A DNA stretch of 64,000 nt from Psammoneis japonica (GCA_008632985.1 QPGO01000067.1:320142-384141); one strand, 5' to 3'. Positions 1 through 64,000 are shown, counted from the first letter of the stretch. Numbers and translations are program-made. Notes: generated by a model not told the origin, from the sequence alone.

Positions 1-3000
1 TGTGGCCACCGGCACCACAGGTGCGACTGGCATTGTTGTGGTCAGCAACTGGTGAGTTGGTCTTCTTCCTTTTTCTTGGCGGCGTGGTCAACAAGAACAC
101 CAAATGGAAAGAAAACAGGATGAGTGACATCCCAGAGAAGGCAAAAATGTGAAATCTGACAGCAAATGCAAGACGCAGTTCTCATCACCAGCATTGGACA
201 AGCACAAAATGATTGACAAGATGGCGCATGTGGACAGCACTCCTTCTTCTTCATGTCAATGTGATGTGATCATGGGACACAACTTGATGAGCAATCTTGG
301 GATCGTGCTTGATTTTGCAAATGAAGAAATCAAATGGGAAGATGCAGCTGTGCCAATGAAGGATGCACATGCACCATTTGATGCTGAGGGTGGTCTTCAA
401 GCTGATTGCCAATCACATGGAGGAATCTCACACCATGAAAAGTCTCAATGACAGGGTCAACAGGATCCTTGATGCTGACTGTCACACTGCTGACCTCAAC
501 AATGTGACTGCTGCAACAGCAACTCACCTTGCTCCAGAGGAGTGGAAGCAATTGAACTTTCTTCTAAAAAGATTCAAAAATCTTTTTGACAGTTCCTCAG
601 GTGCATGGGCTGGAAAACTGGTCAATCTTGCATTGAAGTCAGGGGCAACCCCACATCATGCAGTGCCATTTCCTGTTCCACAAGCCTTGGAGGCAACTGC
701 TTGAAAGGAAGTCAAAAGCCTCTGCAAGACAGGAATCTCAAGAAAAACAATCCACTTAGAATGGGCAGCTCCAACCTTTGTTCAACCTGAGAAAAATGTC
801 GGAGTTCAATTTTTGTCCAACTTTTGCAAGCTGAGTCAGAGGTCAATGTGCACTCCGCACCCCCCACCTGACATTCAAGACATGCCGCAGAAGCTCAAGG
901 GCTTCATGCATGCAACGTCATTTGATTTGAACATGGGATGTCATCACATTAAGTTGACACCATGCGCACATTGGTTGTGCACCATTGTGATGCCGTGGGG
1001 CAAATGTGAGCACTGCAGACTGCCTGTGGGAATTTGTGGAGCTCCAGACATTTTTCAAGAGCACATGAGTGACCTCATGGCAGGCTTAGAATTTGTCAGG
1101 ATGCACATTGACAACATGCCATGCCTGACATGTGGTGACTTGAAGGATCATCTTAAAAAGCTCAAAACAACATTTGCGCAACTTGACAAGCTGGTTTAAA
1201 GTCAATGCCAAAAAAAACCTTTTGTGAAACCCAAAGTGGATCATCTTGGGTTTCACATTTTGCAGCAAGGCATCAAACCAATCCCCCAAAATGTGGAGGC
1301 AATTCAATCTGTCGCTGCTCCCAAAATGACATTTTTTTGGCATGATCAATTGTTGTCAAGATGTGTGGCCTCAACAATCTCATGCACTTGCTCATCTGGC
1401 CAGACTCACCTCATCCAAGGTCAAGTGGCAATGGGCAAGCATGGAACAAAAAGCCTTCAAAAATGTGAAGCAAATTGTGTCAAAAGATGTGTTTTTGGCA
1501 AACCCAAATTTTGACAAACCCTTTGAGACAAGCACAGATGCAAGCAATTCTAAATTGGGTGCCGTCACATCACAAGACAAATGACCCGTTGCCTTCTTTA
1601 GCAGAAAGCCAAATGGAGCACAGATGCGACACACCACAATGGAAAAAGAGCTGCTGTCCATCATTGAAGCTCTTCTTGAGGAGTTCTGAAATGTGCTGTT
1701 TGGTGGCCAACAATTAAAAACATTTGCAGATCATGAAAACCCTGCTCATGAGAATTTTGCTGTGGACAGAGTCATGTGTTGGCATCCAACAACAAAAGAA
1801 TGCAGTCCTGAAACAATTTGCCTCATGGGCAAGGCCAATGTCATCACAGATGCAATCAGCCAACTTGCTGTGAAACAAATGTAACCCATGGAAAACCTCA
1901 GCTCTGTGAAGAATTGGCAGAAAAGACAACCCCTGAGTCCCACAACAACGTCTTTCTGTCAACACACAAAGTTCTTGACACTGAACAAAAATGGGACAAA
2001 GGCATCCTCTCCAAATTGTCGGATGCAACACATCACGCAAAGACTTTTCATGGAGGCAAGCAAGATTGAATGCTTGTGTGTCACAAGGGAAAATTGTCGC
2101 ACCCAAAGACATTGCAAAAATTGGTGACAGATTGGTGTCATGCATGCCTTCTGCAACCTGGCATGAACTGAACAGAAGAGACAATCTCACGACACTCATG
2201 GTGGTCCACCTCACCTGAACACATGCAAAAATGTGTGTCAAAATGTGAGGCATGCCAGAAATTTAAAAAGAGACAAAAGAAACATGGACATTTGCCTCTT
2301 CCAAGTGTGCAGAAGCAGTGCCACAGGAAAGATCATGTGTGGATCTCATTGACCCACACAAAATGCATCACAAAGGGAAGAAGAAACCCCTGGTCCTAAA
2401 ATGTTTGATGATGATGGACCCAGCAGCCGGTTGGTTTAAAGTTGTGGAATTTCCAAATGAGGAGTCCACAACTGTCACTGGATTTTTGGAAAGAACATGG
2501 CCAAGCAGATGCCCTTGGCCATCATCAATTGCCTGTGATCATGGAAGCAAGGTTGCTGGACATCAATTTAAAACTGTGGTCCAAGATGATTGTGGCATCA
2601 AATGCAAGCCCATGACCATGCAAATCTGCAAGCTGGTGCCATCACAGAGCATGTGCACCAAGTGCCGGGCAATGTGCTGTGCACATTTGACCTGCAAAAT
2701 GCTCCTCTAGACACAGAGGATTTGTTTTGTGGAATGCTGTTGGCAGCAGCCTTTGCAGTGCATTCAACTTGTCACACTGCACGCAAGCTGCACCAGGACA
2801 ATTGGTCTTTTGTCGAGACATGGCATTCAATGTCCAGCACATTGCTGGCTGAAAATTTGTTCAGAAATGAAACAAAACATTGCAAACAGAAACAACCCTC
2901 AAGAAAATGCTTGATGCACTCCTCACACCTGCAGGGCAGGAGAAAAAATGTTGCTCAAGAAAGACTCTAAAAAGTTGGAACAGCTCTGCGTTGGACCCTG

Positions 3001-3120
3001 CAAAATGACAATGGCACATGCACAGCACAGATCAAACACAGTGATGTCATTGATGCTGTCAACATCCATTGAATTGTGCCATTTAATGAGTGACTCTAAC
3101 GTGCAATTGGGGAGGCTGGC
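1..3120 (+). mobile_element. Degenerate Ty3/Gypsy LTR retrotransposon pol (protease-RT-RNaseH-integrase order), heavily mutated
   Basis: Fragments appear in Gypsy order: protease tail DVIMGHNLMSNLGIVLDF (149-451), RT DLNMGCHHIKL / PWGKCEHCRLPVG / FVRMHIDN (813-1199), RNase H TDASNSKLGAV..EKELLSI (1342-1884) and integrase CVDLIDPH..DPAAGWF..CDHGS (2318-2800). Many stops and frameshifts. The ends are not resolved. Confidence 0.9.
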
Positions 3121-4262
3121 GCAGCACGTGTTGTTGAGCAGAAGGAGTTGCACATGCTCACAATTGTGCGCCATCATGTGTGTCAATCGCAACACAATGG
3201 CGGATGCATGCAAAGGACAGATGAATCATGCAGATGTGATCTGATGTCAAAAATTGCAAACACGATTGAGTGACGATGATGACACATGAGATGTCAATGT
3301 TGATCATGTCTGGACAATCTGCTGCAACGATCTGATTCTCCGCACAGCAAGGCCTTTGGTCCACAGAAGCAGTGCAAAAGCTTTGGGCCATTGAGGGCTC
3401 CTTTGGAGAAACTTCAAATCTCAGCACAAAATCTGATCTCACAATTTTCCACTTTTTGTGATTTACTCTGCTTTTGTTTGCCACTCGTTCTCCGAGCACA
3501 GTGCACAAGCACTCAAAAATTGCGACAGAAAGATGGATCAAATGAGAAACTCAAAGTTCTGTCACATGCGCCCAAGCAAGAGCATGTCTTGAGCACTTGG
3601 TCAGTGTGACGGATGTCACAAAAACCTTCAGATGTGCTGTGCCTTGGTGTTTGACAGGAAAGATGATGCACCAACTTTGTTTGGCTGCTTTCATTGGAGT
3701 GGCGCGACAGTGGAATTTCTCCATGGATGCAAGGGGCCCGGCGATGCGCTTGACAACTTGCGGCTCAACATGTTGGCACATCTTTGGGAGCTGAGCTGCA
3801 ATCTCATGATTGGGCATGACCACAATCATGTCTCAGGCTTCAAAAAGCCCAGGGTGTGAAGCACGGACTTGGGGACAACCACAGAAAAACAAAGAAGGGT
3901 CAGTGTGACAAGATGCAAAAGCACACAGATTGAAACAGTGTCCAGCTAGAGACTCACTGCCAATGGAAAGGAACTGCAAGGTCAACAAGAGGTCAACACT
4001 GTCATTTCTCATGAGGCAGGTGGCGGTGGCGGGCAGGAATGTGCACGCACGCACGCTCCTGTTCTTTTCGCACCTCTTGATCTGCGAATTCCAAAAAATC
4101 GAATCCAACGCATCGTGTCTCGTACGACGTGTCAACTGCGTTCTTGCCTCGCCTGTTGTTGTTGTTGTTGTCAGCACAGCTCAGCAACGTACCGCATTGA
4201 CACTTCGCAACTGCTGTGCTTACTGTCTGTATGTCGAATACTCTTTCGGTCGTCTGCTCATC

Positions 4263-40608: not shown

Positions 40609-43297
40609 CTATGAAGATGAAAAAGTATTTTGCTGTTGCGTTATACATGTTTGTTGAGATGATGCTTGTGAGTTTGATGTCAGCACTTCATGGATCAAGG
40701 TCATACACGTGAGTGAGTTCTGGATCAGTTTGGGTCCCCTCTGATAAAGAATTATGACGCCTCTATGGTTCGACAGCTGCAGTGGTGAACCTCGCTGAGG
40801 TGTTCCCAGTGCCAAACCAGAAACCTTGACTTGCCCTGCGAAACCTCCACGCCTTGGCTCGGGGCGGCTGTCACTTCTTCGATGAACAGCAAAAACTTTC
40901 GGTCCAAAGATAAGCCCAAGCGTGCTCATTGGAAACGTCCAGATCAGAATCGAATAACCAATGTAGCGCCCATCCTATTTCCAAAAGGGACAAAAATTGA
41001 GAGATAATTGCAAGCAAAGATAAGAAATGACCAGCATGACTTACAGTCGACACGTCATACAGCAGTGGTATCATAGGGAGGGAAAATAAGAGCACCTCGA
41101 GTTGAATCAATACCATAACGAAGATCCAGCGTGATTCCGAGAAAGCGTCATCGACATCCTTCGTTTTCCACGCCATGTAGAAAGTTAGCAGCGTCGGAAT
41201 GAGCAGGATGAACACAAGCGGAAGGATAAAAGCGATAGCTTCGTCTGACTTGCATTGCCCAATACTCTCGCCAGTTATCACATTAGTCTCGGTGCGAACC
41301 CAAGTCAGGCTATCCAGTCCTGTCCAAAGGCATAACACTACGAGGGCAGCGGCAGCGCAAAGAGCTGAAGGCCAGGCAACGTGGACCATATCAACCCTTC
41401 TCCGCGCAAACTGAAGCACTCTGTTGACACGCCAGAGCTTGCTAAAGAGACCTCCGTAAGTAAAAATGTGACCGAGGGAGGAGAGCCACGGTGTCGCCAT
41501 GCAAGCCCTGCTGAGTTGCTCTTCTGACCACCCGTAGCTTTCATCGAACGAAATTGTAATGATAGCAGAGACAGACACAGTGGCACCGAGACATATCAAG
41601 TAGAGGAAATATGGCTGGGCTGCCTTAACGTAACGGTGCTCACGATATACGTAGACCCAGACCGTAGAAGCAAGTGCCGCAGTCACCGCGATGCCGACGA
41701 AAGTAAACCCAAGTACTCGAACGCCTTTGCTCAGATAGTTCTGTTCCGGTACGTCACGAAGAAGATCTGGAGGCACAGTGCGACCATCAGCATATTCGGT
41801 GGGGTGGATAAATAGAAATGTGCCGTTGGTGTTCGGGTCTATAGGGCGAGGAATCTCTTTATACAGGAGACTGTTGTTGGGAAAGATGAAGTCTGAGGAC
41901 ACTTCTGGGAAGTAAAATATCTCTGCCAGCTCCCATGGATCATCACTACCACTAGGAGGATAGTTATTGAGGACACCCCAGATAGAGCTTTTGGGGTGCC
42001 TTGCTCCCCTCAAGCTACATTCGGTTTCGTCACAGAAACGAACGACACCCGACGCACCTGTGAAATTGACAGAGCGAATTCCTCTTACAAACGGATCAAT
42101 CGGTATATCCTCCGTACGGTTTGTTGAGGCCCAAGCTAAGCATGCTCCGATCCCTGTTGCCATAATCGCATCATACAAAAATGCCGATCCGTATTCTGGC
42201 ATGTTCTTGTAAAAGTAGTCTCCCTCAGCCTGAAACTGTCCTGGGATGCTGGGTATTGCTCGGTTAAGCTCATTCGCTTCTGCCGGGCCTCGACTCTTCC
42301 AAGAGCGCAGGAACGGATCGTGATCTTCCCCCAGGTGATAACCTTCAAAGGGTGTGATCCACACACTTCCTGTCAAAAACTCCTTGACGATGGGTTCAGT
42401 TTTGCCATAAAAAGGATCGTAGTTACCGAACCAAATCCACATGTAATCCCCATTTGTCAGTCCCATTTCAACCGCCTCTTTAGCCAGGAGCGGGATTTCA
42501 TCGACCGGTAGCTCTGGCGCAATAACAATGGTGCGATAACCGGAATCGAGAACGCCTTGAAAAGCTTTGCGAATAGTCCTCTCGTCACTGGCGGCGGGGC
42601 TTCGTAATGGCGAGTTGTAAGCAAACGCTCGATTCTCAATTTTCGCTGAGTCCAGTAAGATCTGCACAGTTTCGCGTCTGTAGGTCCCCGTCTCTGTGAG
42701 GGCATAAACAAAGGCAATGTAGTCCGTCCGACCTTTGTGCAGCAAATAGTATGAAAGCAACGTAGCACTAGAAAGGAGTTCCGGAAATATCATTGACGTG
42801 TAAGGTGACGTTTGATCAAGGGCCCGCATACTGAAGGCGCGATGAGCCGTGATTGGAAACTTGAGGGCCGCCGCCATGGTGGAGAGCTCCAATGTCGGTT
42901 GGTCGTGAAAGGCGCCGGCTACAGCGCATGGGAGCTCAGGCTGTGCAAGCAACGTTTCGGCAGCTAAATGGCTGTAGGAGCCCGTATCAAATATCTTCGA
43001 GTTTTCAAATTGTACAGGGCAATTGCGAAACTGCGCCAATTCCGAAATAACAGATGTGTTGCGACTATTGAAATGATCAATCGCCATAAGAGCTGCAGCG
43101 GCATGAGATACGCCCAAGTTGTTGCATTTTCCACACACGAAAGAATCATATGATTCATTCCCAAAGGTGAACGGAACAAACGTGAAAAGGTTGCACGAGC
43201 CATTCGCCGGAAGATTGGCTTTTACCAAGCCGATGCCGACGGCAGCAAGCAAGAAAGTGATGGTTCGAATGCCAAGATCAAATAACCTTGTCTTCAT
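40609..43297 (-). CDS. Class C (GABA-B-like) GPCR: Venus-flytrap domain + 7TM, paralogue 1
   Basis: AALMAIDHFN, YDAIMA, FTGASG, VKAAQPYFLYLICLG, LFSKLWRV, AFSESRWI. Intron after YDVST (~40977-41044); last exon LIFGPKV. C-terminal end uncertain. Confidence 0.88.
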
Positions 43298-48564: not shown

Positions 48565-51189
48565 TTACATCTTTTCGGGCGCGTCAGGCTCTCTTGGATA
48601 CGTTTGGACCCCTTCTGATTGGGAATTGTGACTACTAGTATGACTGTGCCTCACAATCGAGCCTGCGGAGGTCGAACCTTGCTGAGGAGTCCCCTCGTTG
48701 GTCATTCCGGATATCTTGACGGCACCTGTGAACCCCCCTCGTTTCTTCTCGCCCTGAGCGTCATTTCTTCGATGGACAGCGAACACTTTCGGGCCAACTA
48801 TAAGGCACAATGTGCTCATTGGGAACGTCCAGATCAAAAGCGAATAACCAATGTATCGTCCGTCCTAAAGGAAACAGTTTCAAAATGAAGTCAGATCTTC
48901 AATCGAAGCACGTAGATTAAGAATATTTTGTCAACTTACGGTTGAAACGTCGTAAAGCAAAGGTATCATTGGGAGAGCAAACAAGAGGACCTCGAGTTGA
49001 ACCAGTACCATTACGAAGATCCAGCGTGATTCCGAGAAAGCGTCATCGACATCCTTCGTTTTCCACGCCATGTAGAAAGTTAGAAGTGTTGGTACGAGCA
49101 GGATGAATACAAGCGGAATGATGAAAGCGATAGCTTCGTTCGACTTGCACTGCCCAATACTCTCGCCTGTTATAAAATTAGTCTCGGTTCGAACCCAGGT
49201 GAGGCTATCGAGCCCTGTCCAAAGACCCAACACTAGGAGGGCGGCGGCTGCCAACACCGCCGAGGGCCAGGCAACGTGAATGACATCAACCTTGCGCCGA
49301 GCAAACTGCAGAACTTTGTTAACTCGCCAGAGCTTGCTAAAAAGACCTCCGTACGTTAGAATATGTCCCAGGGAGGACAGCCACGGTGTCGCCATGCAAG
49401 CTCGGCTAAGTTGCTCTTTTGACCATCCGTAGCTTTCGTCGAACGAAATTGTAATAATCGCGGAGACTGACACTGTGGCACCAAGACAGATCAAATAGAG
49501 AAAGTGCGGTTGAGCTGCCCTGACATAACGATGCTTACGGTAAATAAAAACCCAGACCGCAGACGCAACTGCCGTAGCCATTGCAATTCCGACGAAAGCT
49601 AAACCAACCGCCCGAACGCCTCGGCTGAGGTAATTCTGTTCAGGTGTGTCTCGAAGCAGATCTGGAGGCACGGTGCGACCATCAGCATATACAGTGTCAC
49701 TAATGTGCAGAAAAGTACCTTCGGGGTTTGGGTCTTTTGGAGGTGTAAAGTAATCGTACAGAGTGCCATTCGGAAAGATAAAATCTGTTGACACTTCCGG
49801 TACGTAAAAAACCTCCGCCAGAGTCCAAATGTCCTCGATATCGATCCCGGGTGGGAAGTTGTTGAGAATACCCCAGATTGATGTTGCCGGGTGCCTTGCT
49901 CCCCGCAAGCTACATTGCCTTTCGTCGCAGAAGCGAACTACGCCAGACGCACCGGTGAAGCGAGCAGAACGAATTCCTTGCACGAAGGTGTCGATAGGTA
50001 TGTCGTCCGTTCCGTTTGCAGAAGCCCAAGCCAAGCATGCACCTATCCCAGTAGATATGACGGCATCGTACACGAACGAAGTCCCCCATTCGGGATATAA
50101 CTTGACAAAAAAGTCATCCTCTGCTTCAAACTTTCCTGGAAAGTCAGGAACAGCAAGGTTGAGCTTTTCTACTTCAGCTGGGCCTTGACTCCACCAAGCT
50201 CGTAGGAATGGATCTTTCTCTTGACCCAAGTAATATCCTTGCAACGGAGTTATGAAGATACTTCCCGCCAGGAACTTTCTTATTGAGGGATCATTGTCTT
50301 CGAAATATGGATCGTAGTCTCCAAACCAAACCCACATGTAATCCCCATTTGTGAGACCCATATCCACTGCTTCCTTCGCCAGTAGCGGGATCTCAATAGT
50401 CGGAAGCTCCGTTGCAACAACAATGGTACGATATCCAGAATCAATAACACCTTGCAAAGCTCTTCGAATAGTCCTTTGGTCACTGGTTGCTGGGCTAGCT
50501 AACGAATTATACGGAAAAGCTTGGTTATCAATACCATGCTCATCCAGCAAGATTTGGACTGTCTCGCGTTTGTAAATACCAGTTTCAGTGAGCGCGAAAA
50601 CAAACGCTACAAAATCGGTTCGACCTTTGTAGAGCAGATACCTTGTCAGTACCGCGGCACTCGTGATGATTTCCGGGAAGACCTGCGAAGTGTATGGTGA
50701 CGTTCGATCAAGTGCCCGAAGACTGAAAGCCCTGTAAGCAGTGACTGGGAACTTGAGCGCCGCAGCCAAGGTAGATAGTTCCAAAGTTGGCTGGTCATGA
50801 AAGCCCCCTGCTACAGCGCATGGGGTTTCAGGCTGTGCCAGCAATGTCTCCGCAGCCTTATTTGTATAAGAACCGGTGTCGAATATCTTGGAATTCTCAA
50901 ACTGCACAGGGCAATCGCGAAACTGCGCAAGTTCTGGGACAACAGAAGTGTTGCGACTATTGAAGTGATCAATCGCCATAAGAGCTGCAGCGGCATGGGA
51001 CATACCAACATTGCCACATTCACCGCAATCAAAAGAATAATACGGTACTTTTCCGAAGGTGAAAGGTACAAATGTGTATAGGTTGCACGAACCATTTCTT
51101 GGTAAGATCGCCTCTACACCGATAAGCGTGCATATTCCGATAATCGTTCGCATCACTTGGCACCGCAACGACGACTTCATTGCCGGCAT
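48565..51189 (-). CDS. Class C (GABA-B-like) GPCR, paralogue 2
   Basis: Collinear with 40609-43297 and highly similar to it. Same intron position after YDVST (~48867-48939); last exon ends APEKM*. Confidence 0.9.
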
Positions 51190-51929
51190 TCTTTCTTTGA
51201 CAGATTGAAGATGTTTTCCTTCTCACTCTCGCCAACTTTCTTGTACCGTACTTACAGTACAGTACAGTACAGTAGGGCTACCGGTACTACTGTGCTCGAG
51301 TCGGACGAATCATTCGACTGAATGAATGACGTCTGCTGTTTTTGTCATTTTGCTTCTTTTTGTGCTTTCTTGTTTTTTGGATTTTTCGCTCTCAAATGGT
51401 CGAATTGTCACAGCTTTGACCTTCAGACTAACCAAGGGACTGACGCTTCAACAGCCCATGACATTTGGTGCTGCTGTCAAGAGCATCATTTCTTTTTAAT
51501 CACACCAAGAATGAGTGTGGCTGTGCAGGTTTTTCACCACACCACTTTTGTCTCGTCATGGCGATCATGTCTCTTGGCTCTGCTTGCTGGCAAAAAAATG
51601 TTTGGGAGAGCAGCCTGCATCTCTTTGTCTGGAGTGCCCATGTCTTCACACCTCCAGCCACTCTGGCTGCAGTGTGTCATGTCATGAACAACACAACACC
51701 ATGAGAAGATGACAATCTCTCTTGCACCAATGCAGAGAAGGCCAGCACAGCAACGAGCGGCTCTTTCTTTAGGAGGTTGCTGATCATCAGGCCGTTCGGA
51801 AAAGGCAACCCCAGTCCATGGGTGCAACAAAGTCACTGTGGCTGCTGCTGTTGCTGCAGCAGTTGAGAGTGTGTGTTTTCCAAATGATGAGCATGTTGTG
51901 TTGATTCCAAGCCGTTCCCCAGTCGCCCA

Positions 51930-52130
51930 AGTTGGCAAAACTCACGAAAGTTGACAAGTTTGCCAAAGCAGACAAAGTCACCAAATTTGACAAAGTTGCA
52001 AACTTGCCAAAGCTGACACCAAAGTCAACAATTTTGCCAAAGTCACCGAAGTTGAGAATTTTGCCAAAGTTGACAAAGTCGCCAAAGTCAACAATTCTGA
52101 CAAACTTGCCAAAGTTGACAAACTCAAAAT
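51930..52130. repeat. Degenerate ~9-bp-period tandem repeat
   Basis: Units such as aaagttgac, aaagtcaac, aaagtcacc, aaagtcgcc, aattttgcc and aaacttgcc, repeated about 20 times. Confidence 0.8.
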
Positions 52131-55100
52131 GACAGATGTGTCAACTGCCCTCTCTGTTGCTCTCTGACTGCTGCTTTCTCTGCTGTCTGCTGATGCACTC
52201 TTGGTCCAGCTCTGGTGGTTGGCTGTGGTGCAAGCCATGAGCACCAGACCTCAAACTGGAGGAGCACCAGGTCTGAGGAACATGGAGTTGGAGCTCTGGT
52301 GGCTGAAGAGCTGCAAAGGGTGGTGGCATGGGCTGCAACCAAGAACTCACTCTCTCAACTCATGAATGTGCAGTGCAACATTGATGTTGGAACATTGGGG
52401 TGAGAGGTGGTTTTCACAGGACAGACAATGTTGCAGAGCAAGACATGCCAACAATTGCAGACAATGTTGTGGTGAATTTGCACTTGCAACTCAGGTTGAG
52501 TTGCGAGTCTTGTGCTCACTTTTTAGCATCTGAACCCAGCCAACACACAGCAGTGGTCAATGGCACAGGGGATGCATTTGCAAGCAATGCAGTGAGTTCA
52601 GGGTTGGTGAGACTAAACAGGTGCCAGCTGGCAAGCTGTGAAACTCCAGTGCAGAAGCTGAAAAGTCACAGCATGACACTCAAAGGAGTGACATTGTTCT
52701 GAGGCAAAGATTGTTGGGTTGCTTCCTTTGACAAAGATTTGTGTGACAACACTGATCCAGTGTAGACTGCAGTCTGTCTCACAAATTATGGTGGACAGGA
52801 GAGGAAGTTCCCAGAGATTGTAAAAACAACACACACCAATGCACACATGTTGTGTGATGTTGGCATGTCCTTTGCTGGCAACAAGGGTGGCCAGACTTTG
52901 CAGAAAAAGCCATCTTCCAACAAGTGGTTGTGCCTTTGGGAGATGCCATGAACCCCAAACAGTGTCATGGGACATGAGCAATTGGTGGCATCTGGAGTGG
53001 CCATGTTCTTGCACTCATGTTGACTCCACAAGTGTGCAACAAACTGGGGGCACAAACACTGTGGGTTGTGGTGGTGCCAGTGGTTGGATTGGAGGAGCAA
53101 GCGCACAAGAAAGAAGCTTGCAAGAACATTGGGAATGCTGGTGGCAAACACATGTCATCAAAATGGGCTGGAAATCCTTTGTCATGTGATGGTTTTCATC
53201 TTCACAGTGTGTCATTGATTGTCAGCTACCTTCATCATCACAATTCACAGACATGAGAAAGGGCAGTTCTTCTTTGTTGAGAGAGTTCATGGCTCAGGAA
53301 ATGACACGCACAACTCAGCACACATCATTTTTTGGGGTGAGTGCATTGTTGCTGGTGCTGTCATCATGCATCACATCCATCACTGTGTGCTGGAACAAGT
53401 CATCATTTGGCGTGACAAGGACATCATGCTGCAGTGGTTGTTGTGGTCAGTTTGCAGTTGTGCGCCAATGTCTTTGTTGCAAAAATGATGGCAAAGAGTG
53501 AAAAATGACAACCTGGAAGGAAAGAAATTGATTGAAGCAAGGAGGAGGGTGTTGGTGAAAACATCTCACAAATTTTTGCAGTTTTTGTTTTGAAAGTTCA
53601 AGTCCATTCTTGACAGAATCTTTCATTGCACTTCTGACCTCTCACCCATGAGAGAACTGCATCTACAACATGTTCTCTCTCTTGAACAAATGAACAAACA
53701 AAATCTCTCTCTCTCTCTCTCTCAACAAGACAATCCATTGACAAATTTTTGCACCTGTGATTGCACTCTCCACAGGTGGCAAAATTTCTGCAAAATTGAC
53801 CATGGTGATCACTTTGGATGTGACTTTGAATGATGTTCTGATGCTGCTGGTTCACTTTCAGTCACAAATCTGGCATTGCCAAAGTTGTCATTTGAGGTTG
53901 GCAGTTGATTTTTCCAACAGTCATGAATTTGCAATGTTTTGCTTTGTGCCCTGGCATCTTGTTCAGAGCTGAGTTAGCTCATTTGTTTGTTGGAAGAACT
54001 TTGGCTTGATTGCCTGTTGCCTGTTTTCTTTTTGTGTTTCTGTTGCATTTGTCTCTTTGTTGCATTGGGCACCACACAACCCAGCCACCAACCCATTGTT
54101 TGCATGGCAACAGCGCACCACTGTTGCAACTCCCTTTGTCCTTGTTGCTTGACTGACAACAAACAACAATGAAAAGACTCTCCTTTCAAAATGAACTTCT
54201 CATTGAAAACCAACCCACTTTTGATGGACAGCACAGCTGCAAACTTCAATCCTTTCCCTTTTTCCATTGTCAATTTGTCATGCTTTGTCAGTTGATCATT
54301 TGTGCTTCTTGTTGCTGCAAATGCTCATCAACTGGTTTGACCTCATTGTCATGTCACAATTTGACAAATTCCAACATCAACCTAGATCACACCAGAATGG
54401 TTCAATCTGCACTTCATTCAATGCCACTTTCTTGAAGCTGTTGATTGGCAACAAATGTGCTGCAAGCACTTTTTGGGGTGCCAAGTCATCTGGGCCAACA
54501 TGGCTGCGATTTGATTTTGTGTTTTTGTTTTGGTCCATGCTGGCAAATTGCACTCTGTTGTGGCTGTGGGGCAGTGGATTTCTGCCAGTGAACCACCAAA
54601 TCATGTCAACTGTCTGTGCAGCTCTTCTTTGTTGCTCAGTGGATGTGCCAGCTTTGTCTCTTGCAGAAGATTGTAGAGGGTGGTTCAGAAGGTGCAATGC
54701 TTGCTCAAGTGCTGGCACCAATTTCTTGCTTGTCAGAGAGAAGGACCAGCACACTCCATGCACCTGACTCAAGGGACCCAGACTTCATGAGTGGCAGGTA
54801 CAACCAAGGCTTTGGTTGCAGAAACCTCATTTGACATTGAGACTTTGCACAAGGCCAGGCATGGATGATTGACACCACATTGCAACAACTGTGTTGTCAA
54901 TGAGATTGGCCACAAAGACTTGCTCTTGACAATGCAAAGCAAAAGCATGTGGTGTGCAATCAACAAAGCCCAATGTCACATTTCTGACTCACATGCCACC
55001 AACCAATCCTCCCACAAGATCCATTCTTGCTGCTTGAACTTTGGATCAGGGCAAATGGAAGCGGGCACTTGCCTGGTTGTTGCAGCTCTTCTTTGTTGCT

Positions 55101-55284
55101 TCCATCCAACAAAGAGAAACTTGTTTCAAAAATGCCACTGCAAATTTATCCACCATCCTCCTCAAGCCATTTTGCCGCTGCACACAAAGCAACTCAATGT
55201 TTCTGGCATTTGTCCCAGTGCATTGCTCATTGAAGTTTTGCTTGCCCGCTGCTGCTCAGCAATCAAACCTTTGAACAAGCAACC

Positions 55285-55760
55285 CTGGAGTTTGGAAATT
55301 CACATCTGCTGTTGCTGGGAACAAGGTGACAGTTGTCGCTCAGGTTGGCTGGCACAGTCATGAGGTCATTTCACTCTGGAGCTTGGAAATTCAAGTCTGC
55401 TGCTGTTGCGCACAACATGCCATGGGGCCACAACATTTTAAGACCAATCTTGCAATGCCCAACAACAGCTCTTGAAGCATCACTTGGGGTCTGCCAAAGA
55501 CCACCACAGTCCTCAGCTTGCTGTCATCAGGTTGGTTGGCACTGTCACAGGGTCTTTGGATTCTTGGGAGTTTGAAAACTCAAGTCTGCTGCTTTTGGGG
55601 ACAAGGTGACATGGGGCCAGCCACAGTGCCACATGATCAACCTCACAATGCTCAAGCACAGCTCTTGAAGTCACACCTGTCCCACCACCAACACCACCAG
55701 TGCCCCCTCAGATTGCAGCTGCCAGGTCAGATGGTGGTGTCATCATGGGGTCCATCTGGA
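55285..55760. repeat. ~190-bp repeat family, cluster 1 (2-3 degenerate copies)
   Basis: Core ctctggag(c/t)ttggaaa(t/c)tcaagtctgctgct..catggggcca..ttgcaatg..cctcagcttgc..caggttgg, shared with 60960-62110. Confidence 0.8.
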
Positions 55761-57394
55761 ACACCAATGATCTTTTCGAATTGCAGCCAGGCAAATTCTT
55801 TGTTTGATCCAAGACTGTGCTGATTTGTCCAATCTGCATTTGTGAAATGTTCAATGACAAACATCCACATTCCTGAAGTCAACATTTTATTTGCCGCATG
55901 GACAAAACTGCAATGTGGTTTGAGCTCATGTCAATCCCTGAGTGAAGTGTTGCCCACTTTCTTGGATCAAAATCTCTGCAGTCATGCATCAAGTTTGACT
56001 CTTCTTTGTTCCAATTTTTTTTCTCGCTGTCATTGCCATTGTTTGTTTTTGGGCAATGCCTCTCACCTTGTTCTTCTTCATTTCTTTTGCAGCACAGCAT
56101 CTTTTGGTCCTGCTCTTTGCCAAGTGATTGCTGCACCATGTCATTGATGTTTGCTTTCCTCATTGCATTGGCCTTGTCATTTCTCCAACATGCTTTGCCA
56201 GGGATGCAGTCTGATGGTCTTGTTTGTCCTTGGTTCAAACATTCTGGGTTTGGTTCTGTGTGTGGTCTCAGCCAGCATGTTGCTGGCAACTGCCTTCATT
56301 CCATGGGTCCAACCAAGTCTTTTAGTTGTCTGCATTGCAGACAACATGGTCTTGACTCCAAAAAGCAGGTGTGCAGCTTCTGCTGTTCTCCCTTTGCCAG
56401 GAACACAGTTGCACTCAAGAGCTGAAACATCCTCCCTGTCCCTGTCTGGTTGGACATTGGTTTCTTTGCTTCCTTGGGATGTCCAATGCTGACACAGACC
56501 CAACAACATTGCCCTGCATCTTCAGAAGCATGCTCCCCGTCACAAGAAGGAGGAAGCTTCCCTTTGATGCTCTGCTGGCATTTCAAACACTGCACCACTT
56601 CATTCTTCTCTCCAGACAATGACACATTTGGCGACAATGACAACAACTCAATGTTTGGTTTTGCCAATGACAACCCCCAGCCCCCTTCCTGAAGAGTCCA
56701 TTTGGACCCAGATCCACCTCCTCCCATGCACTTCAACAATGCTTCTCCTGTCAGCTCCCCCTCCACTGGAAATGGTCTGCAACCCCCTCTGTCAGATGCT
56801 CTGGTTGATTGCACACTGCTGCCAATCTAGCCACTGCCAATGCAGCCGCTGCAAATGCCCACCAATTTGTCTTCTTTGCCAATGATGGTGTGTCTGCCCT
56901 TGGAGAGGAAAGCCCTTTGGATGTTCCTGAGCATCATTGCAGTTGATTCTGTCAATGGCACTTTGGGTCCTCCTTTGATGCCACATCCTGCAGAAGACAC
57001 AACTTCTCCTTCTGCAAGCATTGGCTTGGCAATGCTTCCTTCCTTGTTTGATCATGAGAATCCACTGGGACCGGTGTGCAGGCATGCCCCTGATGAGGAC
57101 TTTGACATCCCTTTGGTTTGTTCTTCACCCAGCATGGCACCCATGGTTTGGCTGTTCCATCTCTGTTGTTGGTCAGGTGCTGCAATTAACTTCATCAACA
57201 AAGTCATGAGAATGGTCCATGAAGAGTGAGCATGCCAAAAAAAGATTGGATTTGACAAAGCCTCCAACTGCTGTGGCAATGAAGCAACTTCTGGAGCTGT
57301 TCCCCAATGTCCCTCTCCCCCACACTGCTGTGCAAGTGAACCCACAACAGAAGAAAAAGACAAGACCAAAGGCATTGAACAACTTGCACAAAAA

Positions 57395-57830
57395 GTGTTG
57401 GATCTCCTGCCTGACTTTCCCCTGAAAGATGCTGCTGCAAAGAGGATTGCTCTGCAGACAGCAGTCCATGCACCAGCAACATGTTCCAGATCTGCATGTT
57501 CCAGATCTAACTTCTGGTCAAAGGGGGAAATGCACCTCAATTTTCTAGAGACAGATTTGAGTCATGGATGCAAATCATTTGCAATCTTTGTTGTGTTCCT
57601 TGATGACACAACTCAGGACAATGGCACCATTGAAATTTGGCCAGACAGCTGCAATGCCCCATGTCAAGCAAGAAGGAGTGTGAAAGACAGCAGGCAAGGT
57701 TGGGTTTGAAAAAAAGCTTTTGGCAGGTGCAGCAGGTTCTGCCTTTGTTTTTGAAGCCAGGATGTTGCACTGTTTGTTGCTGAACAAAACAGAGTTGGGT
57801 TGGAAGAACATGGTGTGTCTGACTCACAAT
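57395..57830 (+). pseudogene. Decayed PhyH-like 2OG-Fe(II) dioxygenase
   Basis: GEMHLN (HLD if CpG decay is reversed), FVVFLDDTTQDNGTIEIWPDS, then after a stop and frameshift GSAFVFEARMLH. Confidence 0.55.
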
Positions 57831-59449
57831 TTTGAATCAGCCAAGGTGCAGCAGTGCATTGTTGTAAAAATCAAGGATTGATGAAGGCACTCACACTTGG
57901 CAATTGTGTCAAACAATGTTTCAACCAATGGTGACATTGTGTCACTGCAGATGACAAATGATGATTGGCGTCTGCCGCAGATTTGTGCAAAGAGAGTCAT
58001 CAATGGATCAACACAGATTGGCAGTGGCGAGCTTTGCCAGCAAAGGATGAGGAACACCACACCACTCTAACAAGATTTTGGGGGTGAGAATTTGCATTTG
58101 ATGTGCTTTGCACAGTCAATCATCATGAAATGCCTTGGTGCCATGATGCCAGCTCTTTTTTGTGTGCTTGTGCAGGAGATGCACATTGAAGCTGCCACCC
58201 CATGACAGATCCATGGGACAGGCACAGGAACAAAACAGGATTCATGGCTCCACTCATGGGCACAGCCACAAAACATCCCATCAAGTGCAATCACAATGGC
58301 TCCCTCTGGACATTTGTTTGTTGTTGGCACCTCCTCAAGGCAACTTTGTGTTGTGTTTTCATCAAACAGGAACCATCCATTGCAGTTGTTGAAAAAATCT
58401 TGGTGTCAAAACCACAGTGCAAACCATGAACTGAGTCATCTTCATCAAGAAAGGAGCTGTTGATCAAAGTGGGGCACCTTTCTGGTTCATTGGGCCAAAT
58501 GCCAGCACACCACTTGCTGCCCAACTGGTGGCAAGGATGACGCAGCTCTCAATGCTGCAGGCCCAACAGTTGGGAAAAAGCAGATGACAAGAAGCAATTG
58601 CCAAACCAGCATGACCACCACCAGCATCAATGAAACTGAAAGTGCTGTTGAGCCCACCACCAAACAGGGATGGGTGGCCCAAAACCTTGGCACCTGAGTT
58701 AAAATTGACCATCCCTCCATGTGACTCTGCATTGCCACCAGCAACATGACCAAATTGATGCTCAATCTCCAGCATGTGATGGCAGAGCACAGGGAATGTG
58801 CTTTCTGGCAGTTGTGGTGGTTTGACACAACCACATCCATTTGGATCAACAACCGTTCTTTTTGGGTGATGGTGGCAGCAGTTGGAGACAGAAGCATTTT
58901 GTTTGTTGGGACAAATGAGATTGTGGTGCATTGGTGGTGCGAGGGCATTGGAGTGTGGAGGGAACAATCAACCAGGTTGCTGAAAAAAATTGTGGGAAGA
59001 GTTGCAGATTTTAAACAAATGAAAAATGCAGACTGGCACATGCAAAAATGGCTCACATTGAAGCACAATTCAAAACAGTGGAAGGTTTTGAAAATTTTAA
59101 ATGTCAGGTTGGAAACAAGCTCAGAAATCTGATGCAGAGCCCTGCTCAAATGAACCTGGGAGAAGCAAGCAACAGCAGAATGAGAGAAGATCACCAGCAA
59201 AGTGCACTCATTTTGTGACTTCTTGTGTCACAAACCAGACAGAACACAGCAAACAGTGCAACACAAGAGCTGCCTGTTGGAAAGGGAGAGATGATGGAGG
59301 AGATGGTTGTCACAGGAGCAACAATGCAAGATGGTGGGAGTGCAACATCAAGTGGCAAGCCAGGTTGGAGAGAGCAGGACAAAGACCAACAGTTGTGTCA
59401 ACAAGTTGTGGTTGGCCATTTTGGCACATGCTGCATCACAGTTGCCATG

Positions 59450-60420
59450 AGTCCTGTGGTGGTGGGATTGTTCAACACACAAACAAATGAGCATGGGGAG
59501 CTCAACCGACTCCAGTTGGTGAGCAGAGACTCCATTTCTGTTGTGACTCCCATGGAGGAATGTCATGTGATGGATCAAGCTCCAGCAGTTGGCAGGAAAT
59601 TGATGGGGTCTATGTTGATGAGGGTGGTTAATGAAAGTGTGTGGCTGCATTGCAAGTTCATGACAATCTTCAACAGAGAACTTGCTGCAGGAGGAGAGTG
59701 CACAAAAATGGCTCTGCAGGAGTTGAGGAGCATGGCATCTGCGCTGGAGGCATTCTGTGGTGCACAGAAAGAGGCATTCAGGAAAACCTCAACCACAAAA
59801 GGAACAACATGCAGGACAACACAAGGAGGAAGATGACAGGCAAGCCAAACAGTGCAGGTGTTTGACACTCATGAACAAGATTGTTCAACGGGTCAGGTGT
59901 TGACTCCTTTGTTTTTGTCAAGGCAGCTGCTGCTTTGGAGGGGTCACTGGTTCAGTGCAAAGAGTTCATTGAGGGCAGGGCTGACAAAGACAAGTGCATG
60001 TGGTTCTTGGAAATGGCAGCACCAACTGTGGTGGGCCAAGCACAGTTTGGCAGAAGCATGATGGATTTGCTCCAAGAGTGGCTCACCAAATCATTGGAGG
60101 CCGTTTGCTCTGCTGGCACACAAACTGCTGTGACAAGGCAGTTGACATGACAGAGAAGTTGGAGAATGACACCAACATTGCATGGCAAAGAAAGTGGACA
60201 GCAGAAGATGCTAAACCTGCAAAGTGCACAGCACAGGAAAAAGGGGAATCAGCTGAGAGCAGCCAAGGATGGAGCATGGATGGGATCAAGAAGTGCAACA
60301 AACTGTGTGAGTGGGTGATGAAAGACCAAGAGGAGAATGAAGGACTTGGTGCATGCCAGCTCAAGGAACAGAGGCAAGAGAAGGCAAACTCTTTCAAGGA
60401 GGCAGAGAAGAAATGAAAAA
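59450..60420 (+). pseudogene. Decayed ORF of unknown, probably transposon-associated, protein
   Basis: Consecutive protein-like fragments ending AKCT..GWSMDGIKKCNKLC (AKYT..GWSTDGIKKYNEL if the mutations are reversed) and a Glu/Arg-rich tail. Confidence 0.35.
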
Positions 60421-60959
60421 GAGAGGAGAACAGGGAGGAGAGAGAGAGGACAGATGGGCTGCACTGGTGATGGGAGAGGACCTGCCCTTGCAGCCAGTGG
60501 CTGGTGCCAGCAATGGTGCGGAAGCAATTGCAGCCATGGCAACAACACAAACTGGTGCATGAGTGCAAATTGCAGCAAACAATGAAATCCAGCAGAACAT
60601 GGAAAAAACAATGAGGCAAACTGCAAGGCAATTGTCAGTCAAGAACAAATGGCAGTTGCAACATTTGCTTTTAACACAATGATGCAAAGAGACAAAATGC
60701 AGAAAGACATTGCAGGTGAAGATGGTGGATTGAAAGTGACAAGAGATGTGATGAAGAAACTGGGAGCAGCAAATGACAAAAAGGGTTGAGATTGAAGTTG
60801 TGGGCAAGAACATTTGCACTTCAAAGTGGGGTGCAATTTAAAATCGAAAAGAAGCTCACAAACTCAATTGGTTCTCAACTGATGTTTGAAGAAAGACTTG
60901 GCTTGCAAGTTCACAACAATCTGAAATTGGAGTCAAGAAACACCCAGATTGTGACAGGT

Positions 60960-62110
60960 GGTCAGACACAGATTGTTGGCATCCCAGATGTCCTTTCACT
61001 CTGGAGCTTGGAAGTTCAAGTCTGCTGCTGTTGGAGACAAATTGACACGGGGCTGCAACACCATGACATCAACCTTGAAATGTCCAACCACAGTTCTCAA
61101 AGTGTTGCCTGGGGTCCACCAGAGATCCCCAATGGCTGGTGCTGTCATGGTTTTTTTTCACACTCTGGAGTTTGGAAGTTCGAGTCTGCCATTGACAGGC
61201 ACACATGACATGGGGCCACAACACCTTCAAGATCAACCTTGCAATGTCCAGCCACAGTTCCCACAGTGTCACCTTGGGTCCACCAGAAATCACCAGTGCC
61301 CTCAGCTTGCAGCTGTCAGGTTGGCTGGTGCTGTCATGGGGTCCTTTCACTCTGGAGTTTGGAAACTCAAGCATGCTGTTGTTGCGCACATTGTGGCATG
61401 GGGCCACAACACTCCAAGATCAACCTTGCAATGTCCAACTGCAGTTCTTAAAGTCACACCTGGGATCTGTCAGAGATCACCAACACCCTCAGCTTGCTGT
61501 TGTTGTCAGGTTGATTGGTGCTGTCATGGGGTTCTTTTACTCTGGAGTTTGGAAAAGTTCGTGCTGCTCCTGTTGGGGACAACATGACATGGGGCCACAA
61601 CACTTCACGACCAATCTTGCAATGTCCAGCCACAGTTCTTGAGGACACACCCAGGGGGGCACCACCAGATTGGTTGGCACTGTCATGGGGCCCTTTCACT
61701 CTGGAGTTTGGCAGCTCAAGTGTCTGCTCCTGTTGGGGACAATGTGACATGATTGAGCAACAACGCCGCAACACCAACCTTGAAATGTCTGGCCACAGTT
61801 CTTTGAGCAAGTGTTGCCTGGGGTCTGCTGCCAGAGATCACAAATGCCAACAAGAGCTTGCTGTTGTCAGGTTGGTTGGCACTGCAATGAGGTCTTTTCA
61901 TTCTGCTGGAGTCTGCCTTGGAAGTTTTCAAATCTGCCCCTGTTGGGGACAAGGTTGCATGGGTCCACAGCACACTGCAACATCAACTTTTCAATGTCCA
62001 ACCACAGTTCTTAAAGCACTGCCCTCAGCCTGCTGCAACTTGTTGGGTGGGTTGGTGCCATCATGGAGCCACTTTGCTCTGAGGCTGGGAAGCTCAAGTC
62101 TGCTTTGCTG
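60960..62110. repeat. ~160-200-bp tandem repeat, cluster 2 (about 7 degenerate copies)
   Basis: A ctctggag(c/t)ttgg core recurs near 60999, 61163, 61350, 61540 and 61699, with more diverged copies near 61905 and 62078. Confidence 0.85.
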
Positions 62111-62405
62111 TCTGTGCCAGCCCACTGGAAACAAGAGTGCACTGACATGGGCAGCCATTTGTCAGGGAAAGCTGGTGTTGGCAGGAGGTGCTGCAGTTGC
62201 AGCACCCCCATGTCTCTCGGGCCTGCTGCTCTGGCTCTTTGCTGGCACATGTCCAGCACAATGGGTTGTTGTTGCAAGTGTGTGGGTTGGATTGACAGAA
62301 AATGAAGATGACTGGGTGGAAGAAAACAATGACTCCTTGCTGCTGTCTAAACAGCAGATGAGTCTCCATGCAGAGACCGTCACAGGAGCCGAAAGACTGG
62401 TGTCG

Positions 62406-62537
62406 TGACATCGGTGCTGCTGTTGTCATTCTTGTGAGCCGTGTGGCTTGAAAGCAAACCACATCGCGCGACGCGTGCGGAACTAAGAGCACACACAATT
62501 GTGTGTGACAAACTAAAATCTTGTTCAAATCCTGTCA
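62406..62537 (-). repeat. Probable 3' LTR of the Copia element
   Basis: Follows a polypurine tract GGGGAG on the minus strand (62538-62543). Termini TGACA..TGTCA form an inverted repeat. CpG-rich sequence stops close to this end. Confidence 0.6.
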
Positions 62538-64000
62538 CTCCCCAGTTTGCTTGAGGGGTCAACAGCGACAGATTCGAAGTCGGATTGGTTGAAAGCCTCG
62601 GGATCGAAGTTCCAAAACATTAGAGGACGAAGGAGGTTCCAGATTTGGGAGCAACCCCAGTGCTTGCTGAGGATGTCAGCCGGGTTGCGGGAGCCTTGGA
62701 CAAAATGAAACTCGAGGAAACCGGAGGCAATCGCCTCACGCACACGATGGAATGAGAGGGCGGTGTGTCGCGTGTGCAACTTGGAGTGCGGGATGGCAGC
62801 ACTGTCCACAACCGACTTGTTGTCCCCAAACATGCAGCATGTTTCACGAATGGGAACGCCAAGGCAATGCAAAGTGATGCGCAGATCAATGATCTGCTCG
62901 ACACACGTCCTTGCGGCAACAAACTCGGATCCATGCGTGGCAGTCTCGACTGTTGCTTGTTTCTTAGAGAACCAATCAGCCGGAAACTTGTTGAGAAAAT
63001 GGAGGATGCCGGTGACAGAGCGGCCAGTGAGCATGCAATGGAACAAGTTCGCATCGATGCAGTGCGTGGTGGTGACGAACTTGCCAAGCGGCTCGGGCGC
63101 ATCTTGTGGGAGCAGCTCTTCTACCTCCCCATGCACGGATTGAGCCCAATCGCACACGGGCTCAGGGAGGTCCGAACAGTCGGGCTCCTCGGTGTGCACT
63201 CGGAGGGTGCCATGACGCATCTTGGAGAGGAATCCGCAGATGCATTTGGCACGGTCTAGGTGGCCTTGACGGGGCACTGCACGGAAGCCAGACAGGGACA
63301 TGACAGCTGCAGCAATGTCAATGCGACCCAGAGATGTGGCCCATTGCAGGGATCCAATCAAGGATTGGAGTTGGTGGATGCCATCCGGTTTGAGTGATTC
63401 AGAGGTGTCGAGCTCAGGGTGGTCACCCTTGTCAAGGGGTGAAAGCACATCAGTGCAGGGCTTCTCCCCAAAGAGGCATGTGCAGTTGTCAACCATGTGC
63501 TCAATGCACTTGCGGGGAGCAAGGCACAGGGTGCCGTCTGGGTCACAGGTGAAGTCGCAGCCAAGATGGAACTCCAATGGTCCAGCGCCCTTGAGCTTGA
63601 ACTTGCACTTCTCCATGAGGGTGTCTGCAAAAGCCTGGGGGTCCTTCATGGTGAAGGCCAGGTCGTCCACATGCACTGCCACGTGTTCGCAGTGGTCACC
63701 ATTCCTGCGCAGCCAGATGTCGGGTTCAGCTTTGCATGGAAAGAAGCCTTTGGCACGCAAGCAATCGGCAAAGCGTTCATGCCATCTGAGGCCGGAGCTG
63801 CGGAGTCCGTACAAGGCCTTGTGGATGACAAGGATGTGTCCTTCCAGGTCGCCGAACTCGGGGCCTGCCACGATGCACAGTTTCTCCTTGGTCGCAGCTT
63901 CAAGGCAGGCATTCCCAATGTCAGTGGCCCAGGTCTCTAGTTTGTTGAGTTCGGCCAGGAAGATCATCATTGCAGGCCATGGAGAGACACCACTCCGGAA
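62525..64000 (-). mobile_element. Ty1/Copia (diatom CoDi-type) retrotransposon RT-RNaseH, truncated by window end
   Basis: DIGNA(C)L, KALYGLRSSG, AV(H)VDD, DANL, RSVTG, SKKQATVETAT(H)GSEF, GDNKSV, FHRVRE, NPADILSK. 481 aa open, with only one Tyr. Confidence 0.95.

Follow-up and report, generated by a model that had tools for sequence, protein, structure and literature searches.

A 64,000-nucleotide stretch of the genome of the diatom Psammoneis japonica (GCA_008632985.1 QPGO01000067.1:320142-384141; hereafter the window, with positions counted from its first letter) contains the relic of a Ty1/Copia retrotransposon whose reading frame has lost nearly all of its tyrosines. We find that this loss is part of a wider footprint, in which the dinucleotide TpA has been nearly erased from two transposon- and repeat-bearing domains on either side of a block of genes. 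In these domains, A has changed to G where it follows T, with a strong preference for a following pyrimidine (Y, with R denoting a purine) and independently on either strand. Since the two strands are hit independently, RTAR becomes RCAR, YTAY becomes YTGY, RTAY becomes one or the other, and YTAR mostly survives. Within a coding frame, a change on the sense strand turns Tyr into Cys, and one on the antisense strand turns Tyr into His. On balance, we think that a context-dependent A:T-to-G:C process aimed at the DNA of silenced repeats erased nearly all TpA beside the loss of CpG.

Depleted domains and the elements within them

Sliding dinucleotide ratios delimit two depleted domains, at 1-3,950 and 51,300-64,000. 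The observed-to-expected ratio (o/e) of TA is 0.03-0.11 in both (and so over 1-4,000 and 52,001-64,000), compared with 0.35-0.94 in between. CG is depleted as well (o/e 0.04-0.4) but stands at 0.56-0.59 in the Copia part, and TG and CA reach about 1.4-2.1 times expectation. Domain A (1-3,950) has a TA o/e of 0.04-0.09 and a CG o/e of 0.13-0.41. Domain B, counted up to the Copia frame (51,300-62,524), has a TA o/e of 0.03-0.11, a CG o/e of 0.04-0.13 over most of its length and TG/CA at about 1.5-2.1, with higher ratios at its 51,300-52,000 edge and from 62,001. The gene domain between them (3,951-51,299), which holds intron-poor genes and serves as internal control, has TA at 0.35-0.94 and CG at about 0.8-1.2; three loci of unmutated relatives have TA at 0.72-0.84 and CG at 0.89-1.16.

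The edges of the depleted domains are sharp. To the right of the genes, TAs, including several GTAC, are dense up to 51,288 and sparse past it, and a short repeat with several intact GTAC (RTAY) sites at 51,244-51,288 marks the boundary; to their left, TAs reappear at about 4,120. Depletion ends no more than about 100-200 bp from the neighbouring genes. Among TA, AA, CA and GA steps in 62,525-64,000, depletion is confined to TA (AA o/e 1.09, GA 1.01); TC has an o/e of 1.26.

A deficit of CpG (o/e 0.04-0.2) with an excess of TpG and CpA is what CpG decay leaves, and copies of the Copia element differ from one another at CpG. This CpG loss shows no flank preference. The Copia frame and about 600-1,000 bp at the edge of each domain have lost their TA but only about half of their CpG. 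As TA loss is complete where CpG loss is half done, it either outpaced CpG decay or happened in a burst. In transition zones at 3,100-4,100 and 51,300-52,080, TA is already depleted and CpG is intermediate, as in Copia itself. These zones are either younger insertions or places where the TA process reaches further than CpG loss. A 9-bp-period repeat array (CAAAGTYGM-like) at 51,928-52,139, on the inner edge of domain B, lies in the zone that has lost TA and partly kept CpG.

The Copia frame lies at 62,525-63,970 on the minus strand and, judged by sequence similarity, is the C-terminal reverse transcriptase (RT)/RNase H part of a Ty1/Copia polyprotein. It matches the RVT_2-type RT family of Pfam (PF07727; E 1.1e-13, 51.9 bits against a cutoff of 31.6) and is 65-70% identical to polyproteins of about 1,900 residues from marine metagenomes. 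With one of these (P0001, 1,859 residues) it is colinear over residues 1391-1850 at 70% identity, the C-terminal RT/RNase H portion. A frameshift is placed near 63,970 because the 30 bases upstream (63,971-64,000, minus-strand frame +1) continue the protein in another frame, matching a segment conserved in relatives, before the element leaves the window. Just downstream of the frame, very high contig depth over 62,143-62,524 probably marks its 3' long terminal repeat (LTR).

Only 6 TAs remain in the Copia frame, where about 68 would be expected at the density of unmutated relatives, a loss of about 90%. At 292 conserved columns we count 44 changes, of which 12 are Tyr to Cys or His and 4 are Arg to Cys or His, a CpG signature; besides the frameshift, more than 20 further changes fall on conserved columns. 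The dead frame nonetheless runs through 481 codons without a stop, since no A:T-to-G:C change can produce one and TAA and TAG disappear along with TA; other reading frames here have open runs of 160-233 codons. Given the frameshift and this stop-free type of mutation, we reject the idea that the open frame indicates function. Contigs that are at least 90% alike add up to a depth of about 7,500-30,000 over the frame and about 96,000 over 62,143-62,524, with single-copy contigs at about 56-67, which suggests that the element belongs to a high-copy family, although a summed depth is no copy number.

Domain A contains a degenerate Ty3/Gypsy pol (113-3,090, plus strand) with protease, RT, RNase H and integrase regions broken by stops and frameshifts. 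It is identified by Pfam matches (RT_RNaseH_2 and Integrase_H2C2), by protein relatives and by tblastn. The RT frame at 705-1,196 has no Pfam match at E 0.01, and an exhaustive protein search with that 164-residue frame returned 7,970 relatives; a word-indexed protein search with the 84-residue RNase H frame gave no match. Mutated relics can thus escape domain searches, as the Gypsy RT frame does, while keeping long false open frames, and TG/CA-rich blocks free of TA and CG could be taken for something else in annotation.

About 11 kb of domain B is without a recognisable protein family (0 Pfam matches among 90 stop-to-stop frames of 51,300-62,524) and is TA-depleted too. A tandem repeat of about 187 bp contributes six units at 60,965-62,040 and two further units plus a fragment at 55,282-55,700. 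We reject a simple satellite as the identity of domain B, since this repeat makes up only about 1.5 kb of it.

A graded preference for TpA before a pyrimidine

The rule that TA is lost chiefly before a pyrimidine is strongly supported by domain-wide data rather than by the codon table from which it was first read. Across 16.4 kb of depleted DNA 61 TAs survive, and 45 of them are YTAR, a class that accounts for 15.6% of gene-domain TAs and 14.9% of those in unmutated relatives (binomial p = 8e-24). Relative to the gene domain, survivor density is 0.69 for TTAA, 0.49 for CTAA/TTAG and 0.18 for CTAG, and falls to 0-0.058 in each of the seven classes where TAY occurs on one or both strands. YTAR is therefore the main survivor, as the first-pass annotation of the window had proposed.

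We fitted a two-strand multiplicative model in which the strands are hit independently and the hazard is set by the base 3' of A. This model fits all 10 tetramer classes and improves on a uniform hazard by a likelihood-ratio statistic of 119.8 (3 degrees of freedom). The fitted hazards are 3.45 for T, 2.27 for C, 0.74 for G and 0.16 for A, which correspond to per-strand survival of 0.03 for TAT, 0.10 for TAC, 0.48 for TAG and 0.85 for TAA. An absolute dichotomy between TAY and TAR is rejected by these values in favour of a graded preference, T > C >> G > A. The annotation had treated YTAR as free of targets, which the reduced density of these sites (0.18-0.69 of the gene domain) contradicts, as does a satellite YTAR site that varies among TA, TG and CA.

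The products of mutation point to the same rule. We modelled them from a starting composition equal to that of the gene domain, with lost CpG split half to TG and half to CA. For domains A and B together, the excess of YTGY and RCAR gives a misfit of 1.2 under the TAY rule, 47.8 under no flank rule and 208 under the opposite rule. A nucleotide spectrum drawn against relatives is thin, as a scan of metagenome contigs gave only three loci, probably because its peptide patterns were derived from the mutated query. Of the 23 positions at which the Copia element has TG and a relative TA, 20 precede a pyrimidine, compared with 18 of 34 controls. Together with the survivors and the YTGY/RCAR gain, this result bears out the annotation's proposal that the A of TA-pyrimidine changes to G on either strand.

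The codons themselves were compared with an alignment of 118 of 120 listed relatives; P0002 and P0084, whose best local match is shorter than 420 residues, were dropped and have a normal Tyr content. The annotation had named 16 codons as ancestral tyrosines, and all 16 are present and stand at columns that are Tyr in 58-100% of the 118 relatives. Those preceded by a pyrimidine are all Cys (GCC TGC, CAC TGC twice, AAC TGC, GAC TGT, CAT TGC, TGC TGC and GGT TGC). Those preceded by a purine are divided between Cys (CTG TGC, AAG TGC twice and GTG TGC) and His (GAA CAC, GTG CAT twice and ACG CAT). We identified one additional pyrimidine-preceded Cys (ATC TGC; 64% Tyr in relatives), which brings the totals to 9 Cys and 0 His after a pyrimidine and 4 of each after a purine, or 13 Cys and 4 His overall. 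The split by preceding base gives a Fisher p of 0.077 two-sided and 0.038 one-sided for the 16 sites, and 0.029 with the seventeenth. Taken alone, the Copia codons are only suggestive of the TAY rule. They do not fix the target, as the annotation had claimed, with p at 0.04-0.08 and a repeat of the test in Gypsy giving p = 1.0.

The loss of tyrosine is itself extreme. Tyr is kept by the Copia frame at 1 of 15 columns that are at least 80% Tyr, whereas every one of the 118 relatives keeps at least 12, and no comparable loss of Tyr or gain of Cys occurs among the 120 listed relatives. In composition the frame differs from its relatives in Tyr (0.2% vs 4.5%), Cys (4.9% vs 1.2%) and His (5.1% vs 3.5%). 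Among further Tyr-majority columns, two now read Phe (97% and 71% Tyr) and one Leu. The Gypsy relic keeps Tyr at none of 10 Tyr-majority columns, which now read Cys (4) or His (6).

The sole surviving Copia tyrosine is TTG TAC GGA at 63,811-63,809, in a column that is Tyr in 100% of the 118 relatives. Only two GTAC sites survive in the 16.4 kb of depleted DNA, at 54,799 and at 63,810, the latter being this lone Tyr codon, and both read GTACAA. The shared context may have arisen by chance, reflect a wider context effect or be a trace of past selection.

Strands, copies and the nature of the process

As the annotation had predicted, there is no strand bias. TG and CA counts are balanced in domain B (1286/1265), domain A (428/460) and Copia (132/144). 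His outcomes, which record hits on the non-coding strand, number 4 in Copia and 6 in Gypsy, elements that lie in opposite orientation. Because both strands are hit, editing of the sense transcript alone is excluded.

The satellite, which is non-coding, is as TA-depleted as the surrounding depleted DNA. Across its 8 units, 12 sites carry both TG and CA, two sites keep TA in some units and have TG or CA in others, and one YTAR site reads TA, TG or CA in different units. This alternation at the same site between units implies that the array copies were hit independently; by itself, it does not tell chromosomal DNA from one edited molecule.

Sequencing runs X1-X3 come from one public sample, probably the source of the assembly, and X2 and X3 cover little of the window. 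Contigs of X1 (about 56-67x) match the single-copy parts except for 0-4 differences in each 0.7-1.9 kb contig, which argues against a base-calling artefact. Run X3 consists here of contigs of 31-59 letters, on both strands, that fall only at 62,351-62,397 and 62,516-62,561, in the probable LTR and near the end of the Copia frame; these could be small RNAs.

Variation among Copia copies was displayed at 14 variable places over 62,476-63,923, with 40 of 108 rows displayed and 68 not. At one position, 63,869, most other copies read CTAC where the window has CA, which is the less favoured strand choice under the fitted hazards.

Several results weigh against the TAY rule or against its independent action on chromosomal copies. 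The Cys/His test fails in the Gypsy relic (2 Cys and 2 His after a pyrimidine, 2 Cys and 4 His after a purine; p = 1.0), although the columns of the two His after a pyrimidine are only 64-72% Tyr. The comparison of products supposes that the lost DNA started with the composition of the gene domain, and domain A by itself fits the TAY rule no better than no rule (misfit 14.8 vs 13.9). Where a relative has TA and Copia has CA, a 5' purine is not enriched (12 of 25, compared with 26 of 42 controls), at sites that are mostly third positions, where relatives are poor guides. Of the alignment-based spectrum that the annotation had forecast, the TG outcomes against the three metagenome loci thus agree with the rule and the CA outcomes do not. 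Finally, the 14 displayed variable places of Copia comprise 12 of CpG versus TpG or CpA, one of CA versus TA and one transversion. TG/CA alternation does not occur among these displayed differences, with 68 of 108 rows undisplayed. Copies mutated one by one in the chromosome should alternate at RTAY-derived sites, so the TA loss of the Copia family may predate its amplification. The shared loss may alternatively reflect near-deterministic outcomes, or alternation may be hidden in the undisplayed rows.

We nevertheless favour the reading introduced at the outset. In it, an A:T-to-G:C transition process would remove TpA in transposon and repeat domains, where CpG would also be lost to TpG and CpA, and would target silenced repeats as DNA, not their transcripts. 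Adenine might be deaminated to hypoxanthine, which pairs with C, and our guess at the agent would be a nucleic-acid deaminase recruited to heterochromatin. That the same rule holds in two retroelement superfamilies, a satellite and unclassified DNA, with sharp edges at genes, favours silenced chromosomal DNA as the substrate. The more specific proposal, that the diatom has a natural DNA-directed adenine mutator (a deaminase or other base-converting enzyme) that acts at silenced repeats, turns the A of TA-pyrimidine on either strand into a base read as G and kills transposons, we put forward tentatively. Lineage-specific deaminases fused to SAM and Tudor domains are described in stramenopiles (PMC3239186).

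A possible but less probable account places the editing at retrotransposition. An adenosine or deoxyadenosine deaminase with a T-A-pyrimidine preference would act on RNA and/or single-stranded cDNA, edited lineages would amplify, and the depleted domains would be piles of edited retroelement copies. Both classifiable elements are indeed LTR retroelements, Copia copies at least 90% alike sum to 100-500 times single-copy depth with displayed differences at CpG rather than TA, and TadA is reported to edit the A of TACG in Escherichia coli mRNA, converting Tyr TAC to Cys TGC (excerpted text of PMC5630033). The His codons of both elements nonetheless require hits on both strands, and the same survivor rule operates in the satellite and in about 11 kb without a retroelement protein. 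The TG/CA alternation of satellite units also speaks against it, though one edited molecule could give the same pattern. ADARs favour a 3' G, whereas the fitted hazard here is three- to five-fold higher before a pyrimidine than before G, and a family with His at invariant Tyr positions of the RT would need mobilisation in trans. Double-stranded chromosomal DNA, which the annotation had preferred to RNA or cDNA, is thus the better reading and falls short of proof, since editing of both strands during reverse transcription could leave such hits and Copia copies appear to share their TA loss.

Other accounts change the base or dispense with a dedicated system, and we regard both kinds as unlikely. 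An A-to-G change at TAY and a T-to-C change at RTA leave the same footprint, so the altered base could be a modified thymine in purine-T-A, such as 5-hydroxymethyluracil made by a TET/JBP-type dioxygenase in silenced repeats, that pairs with G. In dinoflagellates this base is reported to prefer T in TA and TC, to lie mostly in repeats and to help silence transposons (PMC11572971, in part). That paper contains no mention of diatoms, and TC and GA steps are not depleted in 62,525-64,000. Equally improbable in our view is a slow regional bias of late-replicating, poorly repaired heterochromatin, for example error-prone repair that misreads TA. In its favour, TA is depleted in the oldest-looking DNA (CG o/e 0.04-0.13) as well as in the younger Copia, and YTAR sites decay slowly and in both directions. 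DNA polymerase eta is known for A-to-G errors at WA motifs, which also counts for it; AA steps, however, are not depleted, unlike under a WA rule. The sharp edges also speak against it, as does Copia, which has lost about 90% of its TA with CpG only about half lost.

We give very little credence to an artefact, in which a modified base is miscalled in sequencing or assembly, or to adaptive avoidance of TA. In favour of these readings, depletion is confined to DNA that is probably modified and silenced, and the frame is open for 481 codons. On the other side, contigs of the public run at about 60x match the window, though probably from the same sample. Selection is opposed by changes that fall on invariant Tyr of the catalytic region, by the frameshift and 20-odd other changes at conserved columns, and by the equal depletion of the non-coding satellite; the open frame follows from the mutation type itself.

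Relation to known mutators and the surrounding genes

A comparison with known systems reveals partial likenesses to several of them. Repeat-induced point mutation (RIP) of filamentous fungi likewise nearly erases one dinucleotide in repeats and transposons on both strands, spares adjoining genes and leaves relics unrecognisable. RIP, however, is C to T mainly at CpA and creates TpA, whereas the A-to-G change here destroys it, and a TpA o/e of 0.03-0.11 is the reverse of the RIP signature. Diatom DNMT4 is reported to be related to RID, with its function unknown (PMC9998398, in part), and could be relevant to the CpG half of the footprint only. TadA/ADAT enzymes resemble the present process in deaminating an A that follows T or U and precedes C, which converts Tyr TAC to Cys TGC; they differ in acting on RNA loops, needing TACG and sparing TAT (PMC5630033, in part). 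Here the A is likewise preceded by T, but TAT is hit at least as well as TAC (survival 0.03 and 0.10), both DNA strands are affected and the change is fixed in the genome.

ADARs are an animal enzyme family that acts on double-stranded RNA with a 3' G preference. Their hyper-editing resembles the footprint in that retroelements acquire A-to-G changes at high density. The present footprint differs in its preference for a 3' pyrimidine (G has a fitted hazard of 0.74, compared with 3.45 for T and 2.27 for C), in its diatom host and in extending to satellite DNA. APOBEC3 provides another parallel, since its context-specific deamination also fills retroelements with transitions and depletes a motif; it differs in being C-to-U, giving G to A on one strand, compared with A to G without strand bias. 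CpG decay, which coexists with TA loss here, also removes a self-complementary pyrimidine-purine step to TG and CA in silenced DNA, but leaves TpA untouched.

Known forms of repeat-directed hypermutation target cytosine (RIP, APOBEC) or, at the RNA level, adenosine (ADAR). In the full-text literature searched, a scope outside which lie subscription-only papers and preprint supplements, we met with no account of transposons hypermutated from TpA to TpG/CpA, whether in diatoms or in other organisms. By a term search, the CoDi paper (PMC2806351) mentions neither RIP nor deamination nor dinucleotides. Nor did the literature searched yield a fixed, two-strand, context-specific A:T-to-G:C footprint limited to transposon domains. 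If an enzyme is behind it, that enzyme would represent a new chemistry of genome defence and might be a natural editor of adenine in DNA. An adenine mutator, if real, would be an adenine-based counterpart of RIP and a natural enzyme of the sort that base editors were evolved to imitate.

The genes of the control domain include an S28 peptidase whose best named relatives are from diatoms (Attheya 67%, Cylindrotheca 62%, then Nitzschia, Pseudo-nitzschia and Ditylum), which marks the host as a diatom without close kin in the protein collection searched. Two paralogous genes resembling family-C G protein-coupled receptors (ANF_receptor plus 7tm_3) lie about 5.6 kb apart on the minus strand, at 40,871-43,297 and 48,931-51,189. 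The second of these adjoins depleted domain B, with its start about 100 bp from the edge.

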